Sequence record: NC_025447.1
Reading direction: 5' to 3' (one strand)
Origin: Escherichia phage 121Q
DNA: 64,000 bases
Position 1 is the first letter of the stretch; every line of letters starts with the position of its first letter. Positions 9,537-49,293 of this stretch are shown here, piece by piece. Below the pieces are notes generated by a model that was given only the letters and a program-made list of their open reading frames with translations, ran no database searches and was not told the origin of the DNA. Both the position numbers and the translations under genes were made by a program.

Positions 9537-9800
9537 ATGAATATCCAAGATAGATTACAATTACTGTACACTATTGAACAGGCTGCTTTTGAACTTGTTC
9601 GAAAAATATCAGATGAACTACCTAAAGGAACTAAAGTTCGTGTACGTGAGATGAATTATTTTTCTGGAGTAATTGAAGAACAAGTACTAACAGTGAATAA
9701 AGTAACATACTATGAATCTGAGTTGTCTATTCAGTGTGAATCGGATGATGGATTAATATCATATTATGGAACTGATGTAGATATAGAGGTAATAAAATGA
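9537..9800 (+). CDS. hypothetical small protein
   Basis: ATG 9537 with RBS GGTGGA, directly after previous stop. Confidence 0.45.
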   Translation: MNIQDRLQLLYTIEQAAFELVRKISDELPKGTKVRVREMNYFSGVIEEQVLTVNKVTYYESELSIQCESDDGLISYYGTDVDIEVIK

Positions 9801-10939
9801 CCCTTTTACAAATATATGAAGATTTAATGCACTTATGTAATACAAACGATGCGTTTTTTTATGTGGATCATAAAAGTCCTGCTGGTGGTACGTATCGTGT
9901 ATTCAGTTATCGTCTAGCATCATACACTGATTTCATGCAACCAAATGCGTTGGAAACCCGTGGCTCTATGTGGGAAATTGATGAAGAAGGTGACATGATA
10001 CGTTGTGCAGCACGTACAATGAAAAAGTTCTTCAATGCTTACGAGAATCCTGCTACAATGTTCCCTGCTAACACCACATGCGATGACATTGCGGTAGTTA
10101 TGCCTAAGTTGGATGGTTCGATCATCAGTACTTATCGTGATAATGATGGTGAGATTCGTTGTAAATCACATACTGCATTGTATTCTGACCATGCGATTAA
10201 CAGTACTCGACTTATTAACGAGAACCAGAATTTGTATCAGTACATCGACGAAGCGGAACGTTTAGGTTACACAGTTAATATGGAGTATACAAGCCCAGAG
10301 TACCGAATTGTATTACCATATCAGGTAGAACAACTGTTTGTACTGAACGTTCGACATCGTGTGAGTGGTGAGTTGCTATGTGGTAAAGCACTACGTGATA
10401 AGTTTCCATGCCTTGCACAGTACAGTACTAATATGACCGGAAAAGATATTCATCACACTTTTCCGGTACGAAATACCTTCCGTGAAAGCGTGGAGGAAGT
10501 TCATAAAATGCTTGATATTGAGGGTTTTGTGTGCATCCTAAATAATGGGACAATGTGTAAAATAAAGACTGACTGGTACAGTTCATTACATCTTACAAAA
10601 GATAGTATTATTATTGATTCTCATTTATATGAAGCCGTATTAAATGGTTCAAGTGATGATTTAAAACAATTGTTCAGTACTGATGAATATGCTATGCAAA
10701 AGATATTAAGAATGGAACAATTGGTATTTTCGTGCTATAATGCATTACAAGATGAAGTAGAAAGCTTCGTCAAGGAACACAAGCACTTGGAGCGAAAGGA
10801 ATTCGCAATGAAGGTTCAGGAGTGTTTAACTAATGAACTGAATCGTCAGGGCTTGGCCTTTGCAATGTATAACAATAAGAAAGTTGATTACAAAGAGACT
10901 CTTATAAAATACATGAAAATTGTACTAAAGGATTTTTAG
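9797..10939 (+). CDS. rnlA: RNA ligase 1 (T4 Rnl1-like)
   Basis: 380 aa; recalled T4 Rnl1 similarity along the length (TYRVFSY, KLDGS nucleotidyl-lysine motif, IKTDWY, GSSDDLK). Confidence 0.85.
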   Translation: MTLLQIYEDLMHLCNTNDAFFYVDHKSPAGGTYRVFSYRLASYTDFMQPNALETRGSMWEIDEEGDMIRCAARTMKKFFNAYENPATMFPANTTCDDIAVVMPKLDGSIISTYRDNDGEIRCKSHTALYSDHAINSTRLINENQNLYQYIDEAERLGYTVNMEYTSPEYRIVLPYQVEQLFVLNVRHRVSGELLCGKALRDKFPCLAQYSTNMTGKDIHHTFPVRNTFRESVEEVHKMLDIEGFVCILNNGTMCKIKTDWYSSLHLTKDSIIIDSHLYEAVLNGSSDDLKQLFSTDEYAMQKILRMEQLVFSCYNALQDEVESFVKEHKHLERKEFAMKVQECLTNELNRQGLAFAMYNNKKVDYKETLIKYMKIVLKDF

Positions 10940-12035: not shown

Positions 12036-12968
12036 ATGCCAACTATTACACTGACAGTTGGATTACCTGGGTGTGGCAAAACCACATGGGCAGTTCAAGA
12101 AATTAAAAATGCCAAATCGAAGACTATCAACATTAACCGTGATGACATTCGAGAATCAATGGCAGGGTCACATGATGCATACAAATTCAACGACGCTAAT
12201 GAGCAGTACGTAACTAAAATGCAGTTCAGTGCAGCAAATTCAGCAGCAGAGAATGGTTGGAACATCATTGTGTCCGATACGAACCTTAAACAACATTTCC
12301 GTGATGAATGGAAACGTTGGGCTAAAGATAATGAATACGACTACAAAGAAAAGAACTTCTACGAAGATTTCGTACCTAATGAAGATCGTGGTGCAGATGT
12401 TCATGTTTTCTTTAAGATTAAAGAGTTCGTAAAACTTTGTAAGAAACGTAACCTCATGCGTGAGCGTTCAGTACAAGATAATATCATCGACACTATGGCA
12501 GATACGTACTATTATAGTAAGGCCATGCACATTGGTTACTATGGTAATTCACGAGAAGCTGCTGTTATCGTTGATATTGACGGTACTCTTGCTCATAAAT
12601 GGGGTCGCAATCCTTACGATGAAAGTACTGTTCTTCAGGATACACCAGATGAAGAAGTTATTTTGTCTATTATCGCTGAAGCAGTTTTTCATAAACGCAA
12701 GATTATCGTCATGAGTGGGCGTACTGAAGGGTGTCGTGCTGATACCGAACAGTGGCTTAAGAATTGGGGTATTCCTTACGATGCATTGTTTATGCGAGAC
12801 ATAGATGATAAACGTCCCGATGATGTTGTAAAATTCGACCTGTACATGAAAAATGTGGTTGATCATTACGATGTTAAAAAGGTTTATGATGACCGCGATC
12901 AAGTTGTATTCATGTGGCGTAAGCTACTTGGCTTGAAAGTAATGCAAGTTGCAGAAGGAAATTTCTAA
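12036..12968 (+). CDS. pseT: polynucleotide 5-prime kinase / 3-prime phosphatase (T4 PseT-like)
   Basis: P-loop GLPGCGKTT at N-terminus, HAD phosphatase motif DIDGTL, C-terminus QVAEGNF like T4 Pnk; 310 aa. Confidence 0.9.
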   Translation: MPTITLTVGLPGCGKTTWAVQEIKNAKSKTININRDDIRESMAGSHDAYKFNDANEQYVTKMQFSAANSAAENGWNIIVSDTNLKQHFRDEWKRWAKDNEYDYKEKNFYEDFVPNEDRGADVHVFFKIKEFVKLCKKRNLMRERSVQDNIIDTMADTYYYSKAMHIGYYGNSREAAVIVDIDGTLAHKWGRNPYDESTVLQDTPDEEVILSIIAEAVFHKRKIIVMSGRTEGCRADTEQWLKNWGIPYDALFMRDIDDKRPDDVVKFDLYMKNVVDHYDVKKVYDDRDQVVFMWRKLLGLKVMQVAEGNF

Positions 12969-17419: not shown

Positions 17420-17647
17420 ATGAAAGTAATTCAAGTTATGGTAGAAAAATACCAAACTGAAGATGGTCGTATTTTTGATTCAGCTAAACAAGCTGAACAC
17501 CATGAACGTATTATTTCGGGTGCACGTAAAGTGTGTCCTACATGTAGTGGAACACAACAAGTACCGTCAGAAGATTACCGCAGCTTTTATGCTTGTCCAC
17601 ACTGTGATGGGAAAGGCTATGTAGAAAAACAAGAGGTATGGAAATGA
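17420..17647 (+). CDS. small zinc-finger protein
   Basis: CPTCSGT and CPHCDGKG motifs. Confidence 0.5.
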   Translation: MKVIQVMVEKYQTEDGRIFDSAKQAEHHERIISGARKVCPTCSGTQQVPSEDYRSFYACPHCDGKGYVEKQEVWK

Positions 17648-18057
17648 AATTGTATTGCTTAACTAATATGTACTGTCAAGGTGTCCAAGCTGGTATTCAA
17701 GCATTCCATGCTGGTGTTAAACTAATTAAAGAATATGAAGGTACTGCTTTCAGTACTATTATTGATGAATGGTACTATGAACACGAAACTATTGTAGTTC
17801 TAAATGCTGGTGGACATGATAAATTAAATTCTTATTATAACAACCTTAGCAAACAGGGGAAAGTTCCGTTTGCCAAGTTCAATGAAGCTGGATTGAATGA
17901 TGCTATTACCTGTGTAGCAGTACTGTGTACGTCTGAAATGATTGAAGACATGGCTGTTATGCGTATGAATCTTCCTGCTGGTGATCAACTAATGCAAGTA
18001 AAATATGGTGCATTGTTTGACACACTAAAAGCAATCAGTACAATGAGGACTATTTGA
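17638..18057 (+). CDS. hypothetical protein
   Basis: ORF in track. Confidence 0.45.
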   Translation: MEMKLYCLTNMYCQGVQAGIQAFHAGVKLIKEYEGTAFSTIIDEWYYEHETIVVLNAGGHDKLNSYYNNLSKQGKVPFAKFNEAGLNDAITCVAVLCTSEMIEDMAVMRMNLPAGDQLMQVKYGALFDTLKAISTMRTI

Positions 18058-22363: not shown

Positions 22364-23059
22364 ATGGTTGAACAATTCATGTTTGGTGGTTATGCTAATG
22401 GCGAAGTACGTAACATTTCTATTCCTTACGTAGTTGAGAAAGTTAATGGTTCAGAACGTACATATGATCTAGCATCTCGTATGATGCAAGACCGTATCAT
22501 TTTCCTTGATACTGATTTCAATGATCAAATGGCACATATCATCAAACAACAATTGGTGTGGTTAGACTCACAAGGTGATTCCCCTATTACATTCTACATT
22601 AGTTCACCAGGTGGTTCAGTACACGCAGGTTTGGGTATTGCAGACGTTGCTAAGTCTTGTATTTCCCCAATCCGCACTGTAGTTATGGGTTATGCGGCAT
22701 CAATGGGTTGCTATACACAATCTGTTATTGGAACTAAAGGTTTCCGTTTAGGTGGTAAACGTTCATACTTCATGTGTCACCAAGTAAGTTCTGGTACACA
22801 AGGTCTAATTACAGACCAGAAGATTTCCCTACAACATTCTGATGCACTGAATACATTGTTGACCAAAGAAATTGCAGAAGCAGTAGGCGTATCACATGAA
22901 CAATTACTAAAAGATGCTGACCGCGATTTGTGGTTAAATGCAGAAGAAGCACTTGAATATGGTGAACATGGTTTCATTGATGGTATTATTCTTGGACCAC
23001 GTAACGAAGAAGGCAAGTACTTAGTTAAGCGTCGCGGCGGTGTGGAAGAGTGGGTGTAA
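22364..23059 (+). CDS. ClpP-family serine peptidase homologue
   Basis: SPGGSVHAGLGI...GYAASMG matches ClpP core. Confidence 0.65.
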   Translation: MVEQFMFGGYANGEVRNISIPYVVEKVNGSERTYDLASRMMQDRIIFLDTDFNDQMAHIIKQQLVWLDSQGDSPITFYISSPGGSVHAGLGIADVAKSCISPIRTVVMGYAASMGCYTQSVIGTKGFRLGGKRSYFMCHQVSSGTQGLITDQKISLQHSDALNTLLTKEIAEAVGVSHEQLLKDADRDLWLNAEEALEYGEHGFIDGIILGPRNEEGKYLVKRRGGVEEWV

Positions 23060-23399: not shown

Positions 23400-23846
23400 A
23401 TGTCCAATGCACAATATAAAGATGGTTATGACGCATACAAAGCAAAAGTAGTTCTAAGTGCTGAACAGCTAAAAATGCAGCATCCATTATATCGTCAGGG
23501 CTATCGTGCAGCACAAGCAGAAGCAATGAAGAAAAATAATGTAACTTTCCCTACTACGCTATATGATATTCCTAAACGTCCACACATTTTTAAAGCTGAA
23601 TGGACTGATATTATGGCAGCGACAAAGCGTCCACGTTTTGCTAAATTACACACCGATGAAGGTCGCTGGTTGCTAATGGGGATTATGAAAGCAGTTGAGA
23701 ATCAATCTCATAAGATTGTTCGTTATAAAGATGTTGTTGCTATGGTTGATAAAGCATTTGACCTTGTACTTCAATATGGTTATGATGAAGGTGTACTAAC
23801 TGTTTCTGATTGTGAAAAATATCAGTACACCCCATATCAAAAATAA
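23400..23846 (+). CDS. hypothetical protein
   Basis: ORF in track. Confidence 0.45.
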   Translation: MSNAQYKDGYDAYKAKVVLSAEQLKMQHPLYRQGYRAAQAEAMKKNNVTFPTTLYDIPKRPHIFKAEWTDIMAATKRPRFAKLHTDEGRWLLMGIMKAVENQSHKIVRYKDVVAMVDKAFDLVLQYGYDEGVLTVSDCEKYQYTPYQK

Positions 23847-25702: not shown

Positions 25703-25733
25703 AAAAAAAGGAGCCACAAGGCTCCTTTTTTGT
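25702..25733. terminator. bidirectional rho-independent terminator
   Basis: A-run, GGAGCC...GGCTCC stem, T-run; sits between convergent genes. Confidence 0.7.
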
Positions 25734-26110
25734 TAACCAGGGATGTTACAATAATACAAATCCCAAGGGTGATATTTCATTTCTCCAGTACTCAATTTAA
25801 TTTTATGAAACTGGAATGATTCGGCAAATGCACTATCATCAATCTTAATACAAAAAGTATTTTTTGCTAAAGTTGGTGCAATCTCTAGTGCAGTTTTAGT
25901 TGCATCTAATCTGATTTTATCTTTATCAAAACTTGTTATAGTTACAAAACGATAAACATTAAAATCAGTGTCGATAAGATCGTAAACACAACTAGAACGT
26001 TGATTAAAGATGTTCAAGTTATATTTCAATTCACCGTTTATATTAGCGGCGGTTACACAAAAGCCGCCGATATTGAATGGTAATTTACCTTGTGCTGCTA
26101 TAGCTTTCAT
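25733..26110 (-). CDS. hypothetical protein on the minus strand (125 aa)
   Basis: ORF in track; RBS GAGGAAA upstream on minus strand. Confidence 0.5.
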   Translation of the reverse strand: MKAIAAQGKLPFNIGGFCVTAANINGELKYNLNIFNQRSSCVYDLIDTDFNVYRFVTITSFDKDKIRLDATKTALEIAPTLAKNTFCIKIDDSAFAESFQFHKIKLSTGEMKYHPWDLYYCNIPG

Positions 26111-26238: not shown

Positions 26239-26357
26239 TAAGGGCACTCCTTATAAAAAAGCTTTACATTTGGTATGGGTTTGTGATAGAATCTTCACAG
26301 TGATTGTACTAAGGGGATTATCAGATGAGGGAAATTTGAGTTAAGTACAGAAAAAGT

Positions 26358-26386
26358 TTGACTTAAGTGTTTAAGTACTATATTAT
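26358..26386 (+). promoter_or_regulatory. sigma70-like promoter (TTGACT, 17 nt, TATTAT)
   Basis: read from sequence; precedes the 26420-29475 gene block. Confidence 0.45.
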
Positions 26387-26419: not shown

Positions 26420-27028
26420 ATGAAAAGACTATGGCTTGAGGTAGTACAAGCAGTAATGCTTCTGATGTTGATAAATTTTCCAGCCAGTGCTGGTGTTGAA
26501 AGTAAAAATGTGATAAAGTACAATCCTGAAACACGTAATGTATATTTCATCTCAGATATTACGGATGGGTCACTAAAGCGTATGATGGAGTTGTATGATA
26601 AAGAACACTATGATACCATTACCATCACATCGCCAGGTGGTGATTTTGATGCTGGGATTAAAATGGCAAACTTCGTTAGAGACAATGGTATAAATTTAAT
26701 TGTTTCTAGGTATTGCAACTCAGCATGTACTGTGGTATTCTTCAGTGTAGCTTTTGAAAAGCGATACATGATAAATCGCTCAGTACTGGGACTTCATAAC
26801 ATTTCTATTAAAAGTAATGTTAAAGACGGTGATAATTCTTTTGTATCAGTTAGGCAGCTATCAACTTTTACTGAAGAAATGGCAACTAAAGTAGGTTTTC
26901 TATTTACACTATATTCTGCAAATGGAATTCCACCAGACGTTCTATATAAAGTTAGCCGTTCGCGTGGTGAAGATGTTGTAATATTAACAAAACCAGAACT
27001 GGTTTTTTACGGTTCAGTCAAACAATAA
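26420..27028 (+). CDS. secreted ClpP/SppA-fold (peptidase-like) protein
   Basis: N-terminal signal-peptide-like segment; ITITSPGGDFDAG...SRYCNSACT resembles ClpP/S49 core. Confidence 0.45.
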   Translation: MKRLWLEVVQAVMLLMLINFPASAGVESKNVIKYNPETRNVYFISDITDGSLKRMMELYDKEHYDTITITSPGGDFDAGIKMANFVRDNGINLIVSRYCNSACTVVFFSVAFEKRYMINRSVLGLHNISIKSNVKDGDNSFVSVRQLSTFTEEMATKVGFLFTLYSANGIPPDVLYKVSRSRGEDVVILTKPELVFYGSVKQ

Positions 27029-27098
27029 AAATAATTAAAATAACAGGATGATTATGATGTACTTCCTTTGTTATTAATTATATTGAGATTATATAACT

Positions 27099-27359
27099 AT
27101 GACAAACATCCAAAATTTGACATCTATTATTTTTTATGCTACAGTAGTGATGTATATTACTGTACTTTTCCTAACAGTTTTCATTTACAAAGATTACAAA
27201 AATGGCTTTATTGATAACACAACAATGAAGTTCAATTCAAAGTTTGAAGCAATAATTTATTATGTTCTGGCAACATCATATTTGGTGTGTCTAATGTTAT
27301 TAGGTACATTGATTTATATTTTATATACAACTTTATTTGCAATTGGAGCTATTTTATGA
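27099..27359 (+). CDS. small membrane protein
   Basis: two hydrophobic segments. Confidence 0.45.
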   Translation: MTNIQNLTSIIFYATVVMYITVLFLTVFIYKDYKNGFIDNTTMKFNSKFEAIIYYVLATSYLVCLMLLGTLIYILYTTLFAIGAIL

Positions 27360-27952
27360 CATGTATCATTGCACACACTGATGGTGTAACTTCTTTTATT
27401 GCAGGGGACAAACTGGGAAGTAACGGGTTCACAAAGTCCGTTCAAACTGAGCCTAAAGTATTTGAGAAAGAATTCATTAAAATCAATGATGATGCTGGTT
27501 TGACCCGTACAAAAGAAATTATGGCGATTGGTTACACCACATCATTCCGTATGGGTCAACTTCTTACTTACAGTTTGAATCTACCACAGCAAGATGCAAA
27601 TGAGACGTTTCCACAGTACTTAGTACTGAAAGTTATTCCTATTATTCGTCAAATGTTCAAAGAGGAATGGGGTTCTCGTGATCCTTCACAAGAAGTAGGT
27701 GGTGGACAGTTCATCATTCTTCACAATCATACAATTTATGAAGTTCAAGAAGATTTTTCAGTTCTTCAACCGAAAACACGAATCACCGCCGTAGGTAGCG
27801 GAACATATCATGCTATTGCAGCAATGCAAGCATATATTGAAGTTGAAAATGAATCAAAAGTGCCACTACATGAACGCATCAAATCAATTTTTAAAATTGT
27901 CAGTGATAATGTAACTAGTGTAAGTGCCGAGTTTGATGTTTTAAAGTATTAA
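27356..27952 (+). CDS. HslV/proteasome beta-subunit-like Ntn-hydrolase peptidase
   Basis: Thr directly after initiator Met; IAGD and AVGSGTYHAIAAMQA resemble HslV IAGD and GSGG...A signatures. Confidence 0.55.
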   Translation: MTCIIAHTDGVTSFIAGDKLGSNGFTKSVQTEPKVFEKEFIKINDDAGLTRTKEIMAIGYTTSFRMGQLLTYSLNLPQQDANETFPQYLVLKVIPIIRQMFKEEWGSRDPSQEVGGGQFIILHNHTIYEVQEDFSVLQPKTRITAVGSGTYHAIAAMQAYIEVENESKVPLHERIKSIFKIVSDNVTSVSAEFDVLKY

Positions 27953-27970
27953 AATTATAAGAGAGAATAG

Positions 27971-28165
27971 ATGATGGCATACACAATTTATGAATGGGTT
28001 TTGAGTTTTTTTATAGTTTTTTCTATTGTTGTAATTTATAACAATGCTAAATGCTTATACAGGGACTTGAAATCCAATGGTTATCACAAAGATAATAATT
28101 TTATGTATGCCTATCATATTGGAATAATTCTGTTATTATCAATATATTTAATTGGTTTTTCATAA
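27971..28165 (+). CDS. small membrane protein
   Basis: hydrophobic 64 aa ORF. Confidence 0.45.
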   Translation: MMAYTIYEWVLSFFIVFSIVVIYNNAKCLYRDLKSNGYHKDNNFMYAYHIGIILLLSIYLIGFS

Positions 28166-28174
28166 GGATCGAAT

Positions 28175-28927
28175 ATGATATCAGAAAAATTTATAAGTAA
28201 TGAAGGTAAAAAAAGATTACTGATTATATCTGGTGCAGGACTTTCAGTCGAAAGTGGGATGGAACCTTTTCGATTTGATGATGGTTTGTGGGATACATTT
28301 AAAATTAATGATGTATGTAACATTGCTAGTTTAACTACAAAATATCATGTTGTTCATTCTTTCTATAATACATTGCGTGTAAAATTGGGACAATGCGAAC
28401 CAAATGCAATGCATTATTTTATAAAATCGTTAGAAGAACAATATGGTGATTGCTTCCTTCATATGACTTCTAACATGGACGATCTTTATACTCGTATTGG
28501 TGGTCATGAGCTTAAACTTCATGGAAACTTGTGCGAAGTTATTGAAAATTATAGTATCAATTCTGATGATTATAATGTTATTAACTGCGGATACGAACCA
28601 TACATACCAAAACATGATGTTTTTGCTAAACCAAATGTGGTAATGATTGGAGAATATCATCGTTATGTTGATGGTATACGCTTACCAATTTACGAAGAAC
28701 GAAATAATGTGTTGAAATCTCTTAATGAAAATGATACAGTTATTGTAATTGGTAGTAGCGATACAGTACTAGTATGGTCGAGATTAGCAGCAGCATTACC
28801 ATGTTATAGTGTTAATGTTAACATTCGTAAAAATGATAATGATTTTTTGTTTAATGAAAAAGTTATCAAGCCAGCAACCAAAGCAATACCACATCTAGAG
28901 ACTATAATTAAGGAACGTATGAAATGA
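28175..28927 (+). CDS. Sir2 (sirtuin)-family NAD-binding protein
   Basis: GAGLS..SGM..FR, TSNMDDL, LHG and VIGSSDTV match Sir2 motifs. Confidence 0.6.
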   Translation: MISEKFISNEGKKRLLIISGAGLSVESGMEPFRFDDGLWDTFKINDVCNIASLTTKYHVVHSFYNTLRVKLGQCEPNAMHYFIKSLEEQYGDCFLHMTSNMDDLYTRIGGHELKLHGNLCEVIENYSINSDDYNVINCGYEPYIPKHDVFAKPNVVMIGEYHRYVDGIRLPIYEERNNVLKSLNENDTVIVIGSSDTVLVWSRLAAALPCYSVNVNIRKNDNDFLFNEKVIKPATKAIPHLETIIKERMK

Positions 28928-29475
28928 GTGTTAAAGAAGTTCCCTTTGGTGAATATGGCTCACGTGCAAATTTTGTATTTTGTTATTTCTTTGCAAGAAA
29001 ATGTAACCCTTACAAAAACTATGAGTTGAATGATATACCAGAAGTAAATTTAGTTTTACTACAATTACGATGGGATGGTCTTCTTGGTGGATGTGGTGGA
29101 ACCGTAGAAAGTACTGATATCTCACTAGAAGATGCGTTGCGTCGTGAAGTTCAAGAAGAAATGGATTACAATATTTTTGTTTCCCATCTTCGACCACTCA
29201 AAACTTTTGAAATTTACCCAGGTGCAAACAGTCATAGTTTTAGCTATGAAGTAAGCTATGACGAGTTGAAACACATTAGAGATGGATACACTAATGCTAA
29301 ACATGCGAGTGCTGAAGTTGCTGGTGTAAATTTATGTCATATTTCTCGTTATTCTAAGGGACAAAATCGAGAAGCGGGATATAATAATCTTATGACACAG
29401 AACTTCATCGGTACAGCAAAACAAGAATTGGAGTATCTGGTTCAAAAAGAAAACTTACTAATTAGTTATCTATAG
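28924..29475 (+). CDS. Nudix-like hydrolase (atypical Nudix box)
   Basis: GGCGGTVE...RREVQEEM resembles the Nudix signature but spacing is imperfect. Confidence 0.4.
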   Translation: MSVKEVPFGEYGSRANFVFCYFFARKCNPYKNYELNDIPEVNLVLLQLRWDGLLGGCGGTVESTDISLEDALRREVQEEMDYNIFVSHLRPLKTFEIYPGANSHSFSYEVSYDELKHIRDGYTNAKHASAEVAGVNLCHISRYSKGQNREAGYNNLMTQNFIGTAKQELEYLVQKENLLISYL

Positions 29476-29484
29476 GAGTTTAAC

Positions 29485-29805
29485 ATGTCTTACGCAATGT
29501 TTTTGGATGATATTCGTGATGCAAATCTATATTATCCAAACCAAGATATGGTGGTATGTCGTGACTTTAAAAGTGCATGTGAATATGTTATTGAAAATGG
29601 AATTCCAGCATTTGTATCATTCGACCATGACTTGGGTGATGTGAGCGAAGACGAAAAGACTGGATATTCTTTTGCTAAGTTTCTTATTGATTATATGTTT
29701 GATAATAATATTAAAGAACCGTTTGAGTACTTTGTTCACAGTAGTAATCCTGTTGGTAAAATTAATATTGAAACATACTTAAACAATGGATTTAACGCAT
29801 TATGA
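29485..29805 (+). CDS. hypothetical protein
   Basis: ORF in track with RBS. Confidence 0.45.
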   Translation: MSYAMFLDDIRDANLYYPNQDMVVCRDFKSACEYVIENGIPAFVSFDHDLGDVSEDEKTGYSFAKFLIDYMFDNNIKEPFEYFVHSSNPVGKINIETYLNNGFNAL

Positions 29806-30104
29806 TTCAAACACACATCAAAAGTCTTATTTGTACTGTTCTGTTAGGTGCAGGAGTTCTTTGGTTCGGACAGTATCACGAGAACACTAAGCGTACCAAC
29901 ATTCACTACAATACCGCAGAAGTTGTTAGTTTAGGACAATGTAGCGAGTCCAAATGTTCATTCATGTATAAAACCCAAAGTGGTGAAGTACGTAATGGAC
30001 TATCAAGAGAACCAGTTTCAATTGGTCAACTTGTTTACCAGGAGTGCTGGGAAGAAAAGGTTCGAGGTTCACGTTGCTATGTTGAATACGAACCAAATAT
30101 GTAA
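29802..30104 (+). CDS. membrane-anchored small protein
   Basis: N-terminal hydrophobic segment. Confidence 0.45.
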   Translation: MIQTHIKSLICTVLLGAGVLWFGQYHENTKRTNIHYNTAEVVSLGQCSESKCSFMYKTQSGEVRNGLSREPVSIGQLVYQECWEEKVRGSRCYVEYEPNM

Positions 30105-30164: not shown

Positions 30165-31604
30165 ATGAAAAAATATACAATTGACACAAACGTACTACTA
30201 TCTGACCCTAATGCATCTATTGCTTTTGATGGTGCTGCAATCATTCTACCATTTACAGTACTGGAAGAATTAGATTCGATTAAGAGTCGTAATGTAGATG
30301 TTTCACGCGATGCTCGTGTTGCTATTCGTAACATTGAAGCAATTATTGCAGATGCATCACATGACGAGATTAGTAGTACTGGTGTTAATATTGCTGATGT
30401 TCATACCAATATGAATCCTGATAGCAAATTGTTTGTTATTACAAACGAAGAAGCTGAGGCACTAATTCGTACTAAAGGTACAGAAGAGAAAGTTCAAACC
30501 CTTCTCAAAAGTACTGTACCTGATGATAAAATCATTCTGGTAGCTTTAGCAACAGAATCAGTACTGGTAACTCGTGATATCAACATGCGTATCAAAGCAC
30601 TAAGTTATGGTGTCGAGGTACAAGATTATCGCCATGATATTGTTATTGGTGATAGTGATTTGATTCACATTGGTCAACACCATCTGGAAATCAATTTTTG
30701 GGAAGTATACAGCAACTTAACCAATACTAATATTCAATCCGAACAAGTTGGTCGTCGTTTGTATCATTACATTTCTAAAAGCTTGATTGAACATCTGCTT
30801 CCACAAAATCTATGCATCGGTGATTATCTATATGATGATGCTGACGTATTATTTGTGTACGAAGGACAATCAGCAATTGAGGAAGATGATGGAACACTAA
30901 CACCAGAAGATATTTTGGTATTCCAAGACATTGGACAATCAGTGTCTTTACGTGCTAAAGTATGGGATATTAAAGCAAAGAATATCCAACAAGCACTCGC
31001 CATCAACAGTATTCTCGATCCTGATGTACATCTAACAGTACTGCTAGGTTCTGCTGGTACTGGTAAAACACTAATTACAATTGCTACTGCATTAGAATTA
31101 GTACTGGAAAAACGTAAATACGACCGAATCATCTTCTCTAAAACTCAAGACTCACAGTTTGAAGATATTGGTTTCTTGCCAGGTTCAGAAGCAGAAAAAG
31201 TGATTCCATTCTGTGGAGCCGCGATTGATGCGTTAGAGTTTCTTCATAAAGATGATGCCAATCCACAAGGTAGTATTGAAGAGATTATGAAACGTAATGT
31301 TATTCAATTTAAAGCACTAAACTTTGTACGTGGACGTTCATTCACCAACACTATTCTAGTAGTTGATGAATTCCAAAACATTACACCTGCACAAGCAAAA
31401 ACCATCTTGACACGAGCAGGGTTAAACTGTAAAGTAGTAATTATGGGTAACTTGAGTCAGATTGACAGTAAGTTTATTAGTCCTGTTAACAGTGGTTTGA
31501 CATATGTAACTGAGAAGTTTAAAGACTGGGCAGGTTGTCGTGTCATCGAACTAGAAGGTGTTGTTCGTTCACCACTGGCTGAATTTGCTGAAGAAAATAT
31601 GTAA
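30165..31604 (+). CDS. phoH: PhoH-like ATPase with N-terminal PIN-like domain
   Basis: Walker A LLGSAGTGKT and Walker B VVDEFQN; 479 aa. Confidence 0.8.
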   Translation: MKKYTIDTNVLLSDPNASIAFDGAAIILPFTVLEELDSIKSRNVDVSRDARVAIRNIEAIIADASHDEISSTGVNIADVHTNMNPDSKLFVITNEEAEALIRTKGTEEKVQTLLKSTVPDDKIILVALATESVLVTRDINMRIKALSYGVEVQDYRHDIVIGDSDLIHIGQHHLEINFWEVYSNLTNTNIQSEQVGRRLYHYISKSLIEHLLPQNLCIGDYLYDDADVLFVYEGQSAIEEDDGTLTPEDILVFQDIGQSVSLRAKVWDIKAKNIQQALAINSILDPDVHLTVLLGSAGTGKTLITIATALELVLEKRKYDRIIFSKTQDSQFEDIGFLPGSEAEKVIPFCGAAIDALEFLHKDDANPQGSIEEIMKRNVIQFKALNFVRGRSFTNTILVVDEFQNITPAQAKTILTRAGLNCKVVIMGNLSQIDSKFISPVNSGLTYVTEKFKDWAGCRVIELEGVVRSPLAEFAEENM

Positions 31605-31861: not shown

Positions 31862-31966
31862 TTCATTTGAAGCAATATTGTGGAGTTCTTAATAAATACT
31901 TTTATAAGAATAATAATACTTTTTATTAAATTAAAAAGAACTCCATGTGTTATTTCAGTTTTTCGT

Positions 31967-31991
31967 CCCTGTCTTTTGGCAGGGATTTTTT
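31967..31991 (+). terminator. rho-independent terminator
   Basis: CCCTG...CAGGG stem plus TTTTTT. Confidence 0.6.
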
Positions 31992-32087
31992 ATATCTATA
32001 TCTTGACAAAAGGAACAAATCATGAGAACATGTATTAAAGGAAGAATGACTTTCCATTAGGTTATTTTAACTTAAAGGAGATTTCAT

Positions 32088-47662: not shown

Positions 47663-48064
47663 ATGACTACAGTTGATGATATCTATAGCACTATACGCAA
47701 TATGAGTACAGATAGAAAAGTATTTGGCGATAAAGAAAAATCTAAGTGTTATGGTATTGATTCTTTTGATATAATTTCTTATGAGTACAATACAAGTGGA
47801 AATAGTTCACTGAATATCGTCTGTCCTCGTGACCCAGAAAATAATTTTATGTATGTTGAAATTAATAATGATGGAATGTTTTTTACAAAAGTTTTCAAAG
47901 GTGGAATTAATTACGAACCTATTGAATGTATGAATGAAGAAACTTTCTTTCAAGAAGATACAATTATCAATTTAGGTTTTAGTTTTGATGATTATAAAAC
48001 ATTAGAACATGACTTTAATCGTTATTATAATGGTTTCTTAAAGGAGTTAACAATTTATCTATGA
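47663..48064 (+). CDS. hypothetical protein
   Basis: ORF in track. Confidence 0.45.
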   Translation: MTTVDDIYSTIRNMSTDRKVFGDKEKSKCYGIDSFDIISYEYNTSGNSSLNIVCPRDPENNFMYVEINNDGMFFTKVFKGGINYEPIECMNEETFFQEDTIINLGFSFDDYKTLEHDFNRYYNGFLKELTIYL

Positions 48065-49293
48065 ATAACCAATATATTGAACAAACAATAGTGAAACACT
48101 TGGCTGGGTCACAAGCCTACGGAACCAGTACACCTGAAAGTGATACTGATTATCGTGGTATTTTTCTTGCTAATAAAGAATTTATTCTTACACCCTTCTA
48201 TAAGGTCAAAGAGGTAGCTGATAAAAGCGAAGAAGATACTAAATTCTATGAGTTGAATCAGTATTTAAAATTATACACTGAAGCTAACCCTAATATTCTT
48301 GAATCACTTTGGGTTGAACCTGAACACATTGTTGAAAGTACTGAAATTTATGACTATCTTCGTTCATTTAACCAAAAACTTCTTAGTTCCAAGATTGCAT
48401 TTTCATATACTGGTTATGCATATAATCAGATTAAGCGTATGACAAATCATCACGGTTGGATGGATAAAGAGCGTATTGCTGAAAAACGATTAAATGAGAT
48501 TTTAGAAGAACACCCTGTCGATGAGGTTCTTGCGTGGATGTATGATTCATTCCCACAGTATCTTGTTGAACGTTTAGATACATCCAACTTACATCCATTT
48601 AATGCTAAAAAGATTGATTTTGAAAAATATATGCGTGATACATCATTGCAGTTAGTTTCGAAAAATCCATTAAAGCAATATCATTTCGTAAGATTAGTGC
48701 ATAACTACACTACTGAAAAAATTCTTGATCGTGATTTCAATTTATTGAATTTTAATAATGGTTATGAACTAATTCATTACGGAGAAAACATTTTTGCGAT
48801 TGTTAAGAATCCTAATGAAAGCACTATTAACCATGATGGTTCATTGCGTTATTTTTCAAAAGAACGTAGTACTGAAGAGTTGAAAAACAAACCAGAACTA
48901 ATTGTCAAATTTAACGAAAAAGAATATCAGGAAAATAGTGAGAATAGGAAAAGTTATCATAAATGGAAAGAAAATCGTAATGCCAAACGTGCTATTTTAG
49001 AATCACAACACGGATACGATTGTAAACATGCTATGCACACAATCCGACTTTTGAATAGTGCAGAAGAAGCATTACAAAGTGGAATTATTCAAGTTAAACG
49101 ACCAGATGCACAAATGTTGATGGATATTCGTAATGGTAAATGGAAGTATGAAGAAGTATTAGAATATTTCGATGATAAAGTACAATACATTCGTGATGTT
49201 CTATATAAGAAATCAGTACTTCCTAAAAAACCAAACATCAAGTTAGCATCAAAAATTATCATTGATATTAGAGAAATGCAATGGTATAAGTAA
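48061..49293 (+). CDS. Pol-beta-superfamily nucleotidyltransferase
   Basis: N-terminal GSQAYGTSTPESDTDYRGIF matches the hG[GS]...D.D signature. Confidence 0.5.
   Translation: MNNQYIEQTIVKHLAGSQAYGTSTPESDTDYRGIFLANKEFILTPFYKVKEVADKSEEDTKFYELNQYLKLYTEANPNILESLWVEPEHIVESTEIYDYLRSFNQKLLSSKIAFSYTGYAYNQIKRMTNHHGWMDKERIAEKRLNEILEEHPVDEVLAWMYDSFPQYLVERLDTSNLHPFNAKKIDFEKYMRDTSLQLVSKNPLKQYHFVRLVHNYTTEKILDRDFNLLNFNNGYELIHYGENIFAIVKNPNESTINHDGSLRYFSKERSTEELKNKPELIVKFNEKEYQENSENRKSYHKWKENRNAKRAILESQHGYDCKHAMHTIRLLNSAEEALQSGIIQVKRPDAQMLMDIRNGKWKYEEVLEYFDDKVQYIRDVLYKKSVLPKKPNIKLASKIIIDIREMQWYK

Follow-up and report, generated by a model that had tools for sequence, protein, structure and literature searches.

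The receiver-like cREC domain, predicted to open cyclic phosphates, was defined by Iyer et al. 2021 (PMC7824862, section 3.4.8), and phage gene neighborhoods in which it stands beside a sirtuin were subsequently described in silico by Iyer, Burroughs, Anantharaman and Aravind 2022 (Viruses 14:1977, PMC9503650, section 3.7.3). The latter work (PMC9503650) recognized a jumbo-phage type 1, prototyped by Serratia phage BF and uniting Sir2, 2H, Nudix, cREC and PIN, alongside rV5-type and SP15/T5-type variants. Its authors proposed (PMC9503650) that the sirtuin acts in a KptA-like manner, removing RNA 2'-phosphates with NAD+, while its partners process cyclic phosphates and ADPr>P. In a related eukaryotic setting, human NUDT16 was found to remove the ADP-ribose signal from RNA that had been ADP-ribosylated by TRPT1, a homologue of KptA/Tpt1 (Munnur et al. 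2019, PMC6582358). Here we analyze a 64,000-nucleotide stretch of Escherichia phage 121Q (NC_025447.1; hereafter the window, with positions counted from its first letter), in which a Sir2-family gene and a Nudix gene lie back to back. A first-pass annotation had joined this pair to four upstream genes, including two for peptidase-fold proteins, as a six-gene operon that corresponded to no known module; the neighborhood published in 2022 supersedes that last statement, as the Sir2-Nudix pairing belongs to a kind of cluster already described computationally, of which the window carries a copy without 2H and NadV. We find that the pair opens a conserved five-gene block, which is the Asteriusvirus version of the sirtuin-centred NAD+/ADP-ribose cluster known from Rak2-like jumbo phages, and that the ClpP-like and HslV-like peptidase genes upstream are its neighbors, linked to it by position only. 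The genes of the block are the following.

28175..28927, plus strand: Sir2-family protein of a phage-specific clade without zinc-binding cysteines, predicted to be the core enzyme of the cluster (Pfam, PHROG and PDB matches, alignment)
28924..29475, plus strand: predicted NUDT16/X29-like Nudix pyrophosphatase, its start overlapping the Sir2 stop by 4 nt (Pfam and PDB matches)
29485..29805, plus strand: cREC (cyclic-phosphate-processing receiver-like) domain protein (PF20274, E 1.8e-22)
29802..30104, plus strand: TM-Cys protein of 100 aa, combining an N-terminal membrane segment with four invariant cysteines (phrog_14661, E 4e-44)
30165..31604, plus strand: PIN + PhoH protein of the PhoH2 architecture, a predicted RNA helicase/endoribonuclease (PF13638 PIN_4, E 8e-20; PF02562 PhoH, E 7e-44)

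The Sir2 protein consists of a single domain of 250 aa that matches PF02146 (E 4.6e-20) and phrog_2162 (E 1e-77), with CobB as its best counterpart in the PDB (E 1e-21). It keeps GAGLSxESG..FR (GAGLSVESGMEPFR being its NAD+-binding motif), the T-x-N-x-x-D signature (T98/N100/D103) and the catalytic H116-G117. Across eight phage homologues there is no conserved cysteine between the HG and KPNVV motifs, and hence the Cys4 zinc site is missing; 13 of the 14 nearest full-length representatives of 50%-identity clusters likewise have no CxxC motif, and with growing distance the matches increasingly carry the canonical two CxxC pairs. The phage clade has invariant V-C-N-I and G-Y motifs of its own, and within it the protein is 43-63% identical to those of BF, CBB and RaK2 and 37% identical to those of the rV5-like and T5-like phages. 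An exhaustive search for fusions among the representatives, with a Pfam scan of the ten longest, returned only canonical Sir2 domains and one WG repeat. In the RaK2 orthologue (locus L003, 4264-5001) the NAD+-binding motif is degenerate (SGNGLSMDSG) and the FR motif replaced; the catalytic HG persists, as do the other genes of the block. Judging from these substitutions, that protein may be inactive or altered.

These features bear directly on the possibility that the protein is a CobB-like protein lysine deacylase serving host takeover, whose O-acyl-ADP-ribose by-product is cleared by Nudix and cREC. Nudix ADP-ribose hydrolases such as yeast Ysa1 have been reported to clear O-acyl-ADP-ribose, the best PDB and NCBIfam matches of the Sir2 protein are of the CobB type and Sirt5, its NAD+ motifs and catalytic His116 are intact, and GenBank records annotate it as an NAD-dependent deacylase. 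However, the Cys4 zinc module is missing from the whole clade, the best score on the NCBIfam CobB equivalog is 92.7 bits against a cut-off of 318, and a deacylase would leave unexplained why, in three phage lineages, genes for RNA ligase, Pnk, HAD_SAK, 2H, cREC and PIN-PhoH recur beside it; we therefore regard this explanation as unlikely. A second possibility, hinted at by the first-pass annotation, is a regulated NADase in the style of Thoeris ThsA, DSR or Sir2-HerA that excludes competing phages or triggers host shut-off, Sir2 domains being common NADase effectors in defence systems (PMC7824862, PMC9503650). The hint finds no echo in the PADLOC defence models, none of which matched the protein at E <= 0.01, and with a single 250-aa domain and no sensor domain or partner ATPase we rejected its assignment to the defence-type Sir2 proteins (Thoeris ThsA, DSR1/2, Sir2-HerA, SPARSA). 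Moreover, the phage is virulent, as the first-pass annotation had correctly assumed of what is a jumbo phage, its lineage has no NadV with which to guard its own NAD+, and the similarity of the protein is to the deacylase-type Rossmann core; together these make a defence-style NADase a far-fetched reading.

The Nudix assignment is secured by PF22327 (Nudt16-like; E 1.3e-18, 67.9 bits against a cut-off of 27) and PF00293 (E 7e-7), and by X29/NUDT16 as the best PDB matches (E 3e-12), to which the box GGxVE...SLEDALRREVQEE aligns with RE-x2-EE intact. The Sir2 and Nudix folds proposed from motifs alone are thus both borne out (PF02146 and CobB; PF22327 and X29/NUDT16), as is the view of the two as an NAD+/ADP-ribose-related pair, given the 4-nt overlap of their genes and their adjacency in every Rak2-like relative examined. 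A word-indexed homologue search with the Nudix protein recovered only 13 close relatives and no new architectures. In CBB and BF, by comparison, the "nudix hydrolase" of about 300 aa is a fusion of a Nudt16-like domain with cREC, and the two are also fused in nine loci from IMG/VR. The cREC protein itself preserves D8, D9, D47, D49, H85, N88 and P89 as invariant residues (a DD...DxD...HxxNP pattern), and in rV5-like phages its gene lies directly upstream of Sir2, following an RNA ligase gene. The TM-Cys protein contains no known domain; it is 41-45% identical across RaK2, CBB and BF, with C47, C52, C82 and C92 invariant, and its gene sits between those for cREC and PIN-PhoH in all Rak2-like phages examined. 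The protein is membrane-anchored, the RNA/NAD pathway supposedly cytoplasmic. In NCBIfam the PIN-PhoH protein comes closest to "RNA 5'-3' helicase PhoH2" (E 2e-44), short of the equivalog cut-off.

At the DNA level, Asteriusvirus-type jumbo myoviruses infecting E. coli and Salmonella, more than 20 in number and among them PBECO4, SHEFM2K, phAPEC6 and slurp01, are 93-94% identical to the window over 3.6 kb around the locus, and a second subclade with fEgEco12, Ecwhy_1 and CMSTMSU among its members is about 77% identical; the records of these relatives already annotate a protease, an HslV family peptidase, a Sir2 NAD-dependent deacetylase and a nudix hydrolase here. The gene order Sir2-Nudix-cREC-TMCys-PIN-PhoH is common to RaK2, CBB, BF, Munch and fEgEco12. 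For a broader view we took a census of 79 IMG/VR loci encoding a Sir2 relative, scanning 7 kb on each side with hidden Markov models built from the proteins of this study; three groups stand out.

Rak2-like phages, 15 loci (genes within 7 kb of Sir2): Nudix and cREC in 14 (fused in 9), PIN-PhoH in 14, TM-Cys in 14, 2H in 14, NadV in 15, HslV-like in 3, ClpP-like in 1
T5-like phages, 27 loci: HAD_SAK_2 (the "Swiss Army Knife RNA repair" domain) directly after the Sir2 gene
rV5-like phages and relatives, 11 loci: in most, the order phosphoesterase - RNA ligase - cREC - Pnk - Sir2 - MazG-like

In the rV5-like phage JohannBauhin and in one further locus (L051), RNA ligase - cREC - Sir2 is preceded by Pnk and phosphoesterase genes that run divergently. 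Over the census as a whole, an HslV-like gene was found near Sir2 in only three of the 79 loci and a ClpP-like gene in one; the former occurs there only in Asteriusvirus and Munch-like phages, and in the T5-like Epseptimaviruses it lies about 10 kb from the Sir2 gene. Based on this census, the recurrent partners of the Sir2 clade are RNA-end and phosphate-processing enzymes rather than peptidases. Seven relatives of rV5-like phages, with genomes of approximately 146-149 kb (L058, L060, L065, L067, L072, L091, L092), have NadV on the opposite strand some 7 kb upstream of Sir2, and thus the proximity of Sir2 and NadV recurs outside the Rak2-like group.

Relatives usually carry a 2H phosphoesterase and NadV just upstream of Sir2, NadV being near it in RaK2, CBB, BF and Munch. 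RaK2 has the order ClpP-like, two genes, NadV, a small transmembrane protein, Sir2, placing NadV within the 4.3 kb that separate the ClpP-like homologue from Sir2 downstream of it; in Munch the order is NMNAT, one gene, NadV, two genes, HslV-like, one gene, 2H, Sir2; and in Erwinia phage Hallingskeid, from match coordinates alone, it is ClpP-like, NadV, 2H and then Nudix. A 148-aa "2H / RNA ligase" gene directly adjoins Sir2 in CBB, BF and Munch (L004:3475-3921, L005:3507-3953, L011:6037-6483), and the protein from CBB, the one scanned, has anti-CBASS Acb1 as its best Pfam match (E 1e-15), well ahead of 2_5_RNA_ligase2 (E 3e-5). In the window, tblastn with 2H queries from CBB, BF and Munch and with NadV and NMNAT gave no match, and records of Asteriusvirus, of which there are more than 30, are missing from the phage-wide tblastn hit lists for 2H (173 records) and NadV, as judged by inspection of these lists alone. 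The open reading frame (ORF) 23400-23846, which has the same length as the 2H genes of relatives, was considered as a counterpart and rejected, having neither a Pfam match nor any similarity to them. The simplest reading of these comparisons would be that the Asteriusvirus lineage lost NadV and 2H, apparently genus-wide, and it is probably through this loss that the protease genes now stand directly upstream of Sir2.

The 2H and NadV genes also furnish the case for a counter-defence function, whereby the block would act against NAD+-derived or cyclic-nucleotide signals and toxic ADP-ribose metabolites, with Nudix, cREC and the 2H of relatives degrading them, NadV rebuilding NAD+, and Sir2 making or toggling a signal. 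Consistent with this, the Sir2-adjoining 2H of relatives matches Acb1 as noted above, NadV is present in all 15 Rak2-like loci, and phage Nudix, cREC and Macro proteins have been taken mostly to counter soluble ADP-ribose derivatives (Iyer et al. 2021, 2022; PMC7824862, PMC9503650). On the other hand, the lineage of the window dropped NadV and 2H yet keeps Sir2-Nudix-cREC-PhoH, a scavenger of signals has no need of an NAD+-consuming Sir2, and the contexts in rV5-like and T5-like phages are those of RNA-end enzymes and not of signal sponges. We accordingly consider a counter-defence role quite improbable.

The published proposal of RNA-end processing accommodates these contexts better, and in its light we offer the following scheme for the block. 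The Sir2 protein would transfer ADP-ribose from NAD+ to the phosphate at a damaged RNA end, with release of nicotinamide, much as KptA/Tpt1 does on a 2'-phosphate; such ends would come from host anticodon nucleases or toxin RNases cutting tRNA or mRNA. The cREC protein would open the cyclic phosphate in place of the absent 2H enzyme. The NUDT16-like Nudix would split the pyrophosphate of ADP-ribose, whether free or attached to RNA, into AMP and phosphoribose, and PIN-PhoH2 would unwind and trim the RNA. As human NUDT16 acts on ADPr-RNA made by TRPT1, a direct role of the Nudt16-like partner on ADPr-RNA is plausible. Finally, the block might cooperate with a T4 Rnl1-type RNA ligase (9797-10939) and a T4-type Pnkp with kinase and HAD phosphatase domains (12036-12968), encoded 14-18 kb upstream. 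Together with an RlaP "RNA repair pathway" nucleotidyltransferase (48061-49293) and a PTH2 peptidyl-tRNA hydrolase (17638-18057), these genes, which lie in the same early region, clearly indicate that the phage invests in RNA/tRNA repair. Further support for the RNA-end scheme comes from the rV5-like and T5-like lineages, which independently link the Sir2 clade to RNA-end enzymes, from the Nudt16-like + cREC fusions, in a Rosetta-stone sense, and from the retention of catalytic residues in Sir2, Nudix and cREC.

Several considerations weigh against RNA-end processing. We know of no sirtuin that acts on RNA, and in the literature searched we found no experiments on phage sirtuins or on the RNA-repair proposal. 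The T4-type Pnkp/Rnl1 pathway heals 2',3'-cyclic ends and leaves no 2'-phosphate; since, in addition, the 2H enzyme that would make one has been lost, a KptA-like step is not obviously needed. The closest solved structures of the Sir2 protein are protein deacylases (CobB, Sirt5), and no fusion of Sir2 to an RNA-repair domain occurs among its longer representatives. The 2H of relatives scores better on anti-CBASS Acb1 than on the RNA-ligase-type 2H, so that signal degradation fits equally, and the NadV linkage in relatives would suit a general NAD+/nicotinamide cycle just as well. Lastly, the Rak2-like loci are not independent observations, as their synteny is partly inherited. On balance, the present evidence modestly strengthens the published RNA-repair prediction, and by analogy with KptA we tentatively favor an NAD+-using RNA-end processing role for the Sir2 block, granting it somewhat less than an even chance. 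In its full form, which would make the zinc-less phage clade the first sirtuins with nucleic acid as their physiological substrate, cREC a new metal-independent cyclic phosphodiesterase and Nudix the enzyme clearing or trimming the adduct, with the Asteriusvirus version working without 2H or NAD+ salvage, the proposal is a conjecture from sequence that may be right and is rather more apt to be wrong.

We then examined the transcriptional setting of the block and the genes directly upstream of it, whose features are as follows.

26358..26386, plus strand: sigma-70-type promoter, TTGACT-17 nt-TATTAT (consensus scan)
26420..27028, plus strand: divergent ClpP-fold serine peptidase with an N-terminal hydrophobic helix/signal peptide (AlphaFold2 (AF2) and Foldseek, invariant residues)
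27099..27359, plus strand: small membrane protein of 86 aa, lineage-specific, its stop overlapping the start of the HslV-like gene (ORF)
27356..27952, plus strand: HslV-like N-terminal nucleophile (Ntn) peptidase of the proteasome beta-fold (PHROG, AF2, Foldseek, alignment)
27971..28165, plus strand: small membrane protein of 64 aa (ORF)
31965..31996, plus strand: intrinsic-terminator-like hairpin, the first strong one after the promoter (9-bp stem with 5 G-C pairs, then TTTTTATATC)

The six plus-strand ORFs from 26420 to 29475 (the four listed here, with Sir2 and Nudix) are present as first annotated, separated by 70, -4, 18, 9 and -4 nt, and an AAGGA ribosome-binding site lies 6 nt ahead of the ATG at 26420. 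The promoter named in the same annotation is likewise real: SHEFM2K and the 77%-identical fEgEco12 keep TTTGACTTAAGT and ATATTATTTAT unchanged, together with the bases next to them, amid intergenic DNA that has diverged. Taken as a class, consensus promoter-like sites show no enrichment in the region (39 against 31.5 +/- 4.5 expected), and TTTGACTTAAGT was rejected as a shared early-promoter motif, its 14 matches in the window standing against 15.3 expected. A near-direct repeat, TTTGAGTTAAGT / TTTGACTTAAGT (26335-26368; 22 nt apart, with TTAAGT in the spacer), overlaps the -35 element and is possibly a binding site for a regulator. Beyond 29475, the cREC gene follows after 9 nt and two more genes at -4 and 60 nt, and no plus-strand terminator comparable to the hairpin at 31965-31986 was predicted between it and 26386. 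An early transcription unit thus probably starts at the 26358 promoter and runs to about 31990. We hold with considerable confidence that this whole span is one early stretch of an Asteriusvirus-like jumbo phage, transcribed by the host RNA polymerase, which holds a lineage-specific peptidase pair beside an unrelated, conserved five-gene block.

The six-gene operon of the first-pass annotation therefore survives as a run of tightly spaced genes behind one promoter, and fails in its boundary, as the unit does not stop at 29475 and the cREC, TM-Cys and PIN-PhoH2 genes had been missed. The accompanying model, in which all six genes form one system for superinfection exclusion or NAD manipulation, could appeal to the single conserved promoter, to the tight spacing and to the HslV-like gene found a few genes upstream of Sir2 in Munch-like phages too. 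Against it, genes throughout the window are closely packed and share one direction: all ORFs of at least 90 aa that match annotated genes are on the plus strand, except 25733-26110, and with such packing the norm along the window, it says little about functional coupling. Furthermore, the scarcity of HslV-like (3/79) and ClpP-like (1/79) genes around Sir2, the distance of about 10 kb in T5-like phages, the separation of the HslV-like gene from Sir2 by 2H and another gene in Munch, the small membrane proteins, which are not conserved, and the extension of the unit past the sixth gene all speak for the peptidases and membrane proteins lying outside the system to which Sir2 and Nudix belong. From the census, the comparison of RaK2, CBB, BF, Munch and T5-like phages and the lack of a terminator at 29475, we reject a six-gene functional operon, and see next to no prospect that all six genes act as one system.

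Both peptidases become recognizable mainly through structure prediction, as searches of the PDB with the single sequences of the HslV-like and ClpP-like proteins gave nothing significant and AF2 with Foldseek was needed. This approach, which the first-pass annotation had itself called for, upheld its HslV-like and ClpP/SppA-fold calls, and the motif matches behind them are not spurious. The AF2 model of the ClpP-like protein (mean predicted local distance difference test, pLDDT, 80.6) has ClpP as its top Foldseek matches in the PDB (E 3e-8, TM 0.65), and among homologues SPGGD and the catalytic pair S101 and H126 are invariant. It matches phrog_26024 ("protease") and reaches E 0.007 on Pfam CLP_protease, with a score of 16.7 that is below the gathering cut-off of 20.2. 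Hydrophobic residues 2-18 followed by NFPASA are consistent with the secretion predicted for it at the outset, or else with a membrane anchor. A canonical ClpP-family protease (22364-23059; PF00574, E 4.2e-41), named "head maturation protease" in relatives, is encoded 3.4 kb upstream of this divergent gene, and the phage thus carries two very different ClpP-fold proteins.

The HslV-like protein belongs to a phage-wide family (phrog_1040, E 1e-23) and has no Pfam match; its AF2 model (pLDDT 92.3) finds HslV (E 1e-10) and BPH (TM 0.72) as best Foldseek matches. In an alignment of 42 homologues M1, T2, D18, K34 and G147 are invariant, the invariance of M1-T2 fixing the start of the gene at the ATG of 27356, and once the initiator methionine is removed, T2, D18 and K34 take the places of Thr1, Asp17 and Lys33. 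Scored on the hallmarks of proteasome-beta/HslV proteins, it has them all, namely the Ntn fold, the N-terminal Thr, Asp17, Lys33 and GSG. The annotation of PBECO4 shows no phage HslU in the region corresponding to the window, the ORFs of the window itself having been scanned only in part, and host HslU could serve as the partner. In Aeromonas phage 2L372D two adjoining genes (L013:3001-3552 and 3570-4454) are annotated as HslV family peptidases (183 and 294 aa), a hint that phages may build proteasome-like particles that are hetero-oligomeric. 

The 27099-27359 protein has no Pfam or PHROG match and only 15-23% identity to the small proteins preceding the HslV-like genes of Munch, phage 3-29 and 2L372D; as the preceding small proteins of four lineages are not detectably homologous, we rejected a conserved membrane partner for the HslV-like protein. 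Similarly, the 27971-28165 protein is 49% identical to its counterpart in fEgEco12 and 16-22% to the proteins in the same position in RaK2, CBB and BF, those of CBB and BF being of a different, Cys-rich type, and it was rejected as a conserved small protein ahead of Sir2, its counterparts in relatives not being detectably homologous. Judging from these comparisons, neither small membrane protein is conserved beyond close relatives. Upstream of the promoter, the sole minus-strand gene of the window (25733-26110) encodes a 125-aa virion structural protein (phrog_33171), and fEgEco12 has no gene annotated at its position. A hairpin with a 12-bp stem (25704-25731) lies just past its 3' end; the scan called it a terminator on the minus strand only, and the palindromic stem between A and T runs suggests that it could terminate on both strands. 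Scans of the window for tRNA genes and Rfam families were empty.

Taken as a whole, the best explanation of the locus joins the anatomy of the unit to an RNA-end repair block, and we consider it evenly balanced between being right and being wrong. If it is true, phages hold a sirtuin-based, NAD+-consuming route of RNA-end repair parallel to KptA/Tpt1, the range of known sirtuin substrates is widened, and cREC, to our knowledge a domain without known activity, gains a function, with another counter-measure added to those against host anticodon nucleases and RNase toxins. In any event the boundaries of the cluster are corrected, with the proteases out and cREC, TM-Cys and PIN-PhoH2 in, and the window offers a naturally occurring minimal version that dispenses with 2H and NadV, in an easily grown E. 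coli phage, and thus a convenient test bed. The HslV-like and predicted secreted ClpP-like peptidases are separate phage families that may merit a study of their own.

When set against known systems, the window comes closest to the BF-type cluster, with which it has in common the Sir2 clade (44% identity to the BF protein; zinc-less, with the VCNI motif), the order Sir2-Nudix-cREC-TMCys-PIN-PhoH, the NUDT16-like Nudix and the same cREC residues. Of the components of the published jumbo-phage type (Iyer et al. 2022), it has the Sir2 clade, the adjoining Nudix, cREC and PIN, and does not have 2H. It differs from the BF type further in having no NadV, in its unfused Nudix and cREC, and in the HslV-like and ClpP-like genes directly upstream. 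NAD+ salvage of the NARP2 type (NadV + NMNAT) is not represented, as neither gene has a match in the window. The HslV-like protein has the Ntn fold, Thr1/Asp17/Lys33 and the GSG motif in common with HslV and BPH, whereas its identity to solved HslV and BPH is 15-21% and its score on the NCBIfam HslV model is 19 against a cut-off of 137. The Nudix protein resembles NUDT16/X29 in passing the Pfam gathering score, in the extended box GGxV[ED]...SLEDxLxRExxEE and in being a single domain of about 180 aa; it differs in being phage-encoded and in that the version of relatives is fused to cREC. We know of no such fusion for eukaryotic NUDT16. With CobB and the class III deacylases, which include its closest solved structures, the Sir2 protein has in common GAGxSxESGxxxFR, TxNxD and the catalytic HG, and is unlike CobB in having no Cys4 zinc module, in its V-C-N-I motif and G-Y insert, in scoring far below the equivalog cut-off and in its genomic context. 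To the KptA/Tpt1 pathway, finally, the proposed chemistry would be analogous, with ADP-ribosyl transfer to an RNA phosphate yielding nicotinamide and Appr>p, the cyclic phosphate then being opened and the pyrophosphate cleaved; the window protein has the Sir2 Rossmann fold and KptA/Tpt1 an ADP-ribosyltransferase (ART) fold, and the likeness is therefore one of functional analogy alone and not of membership.

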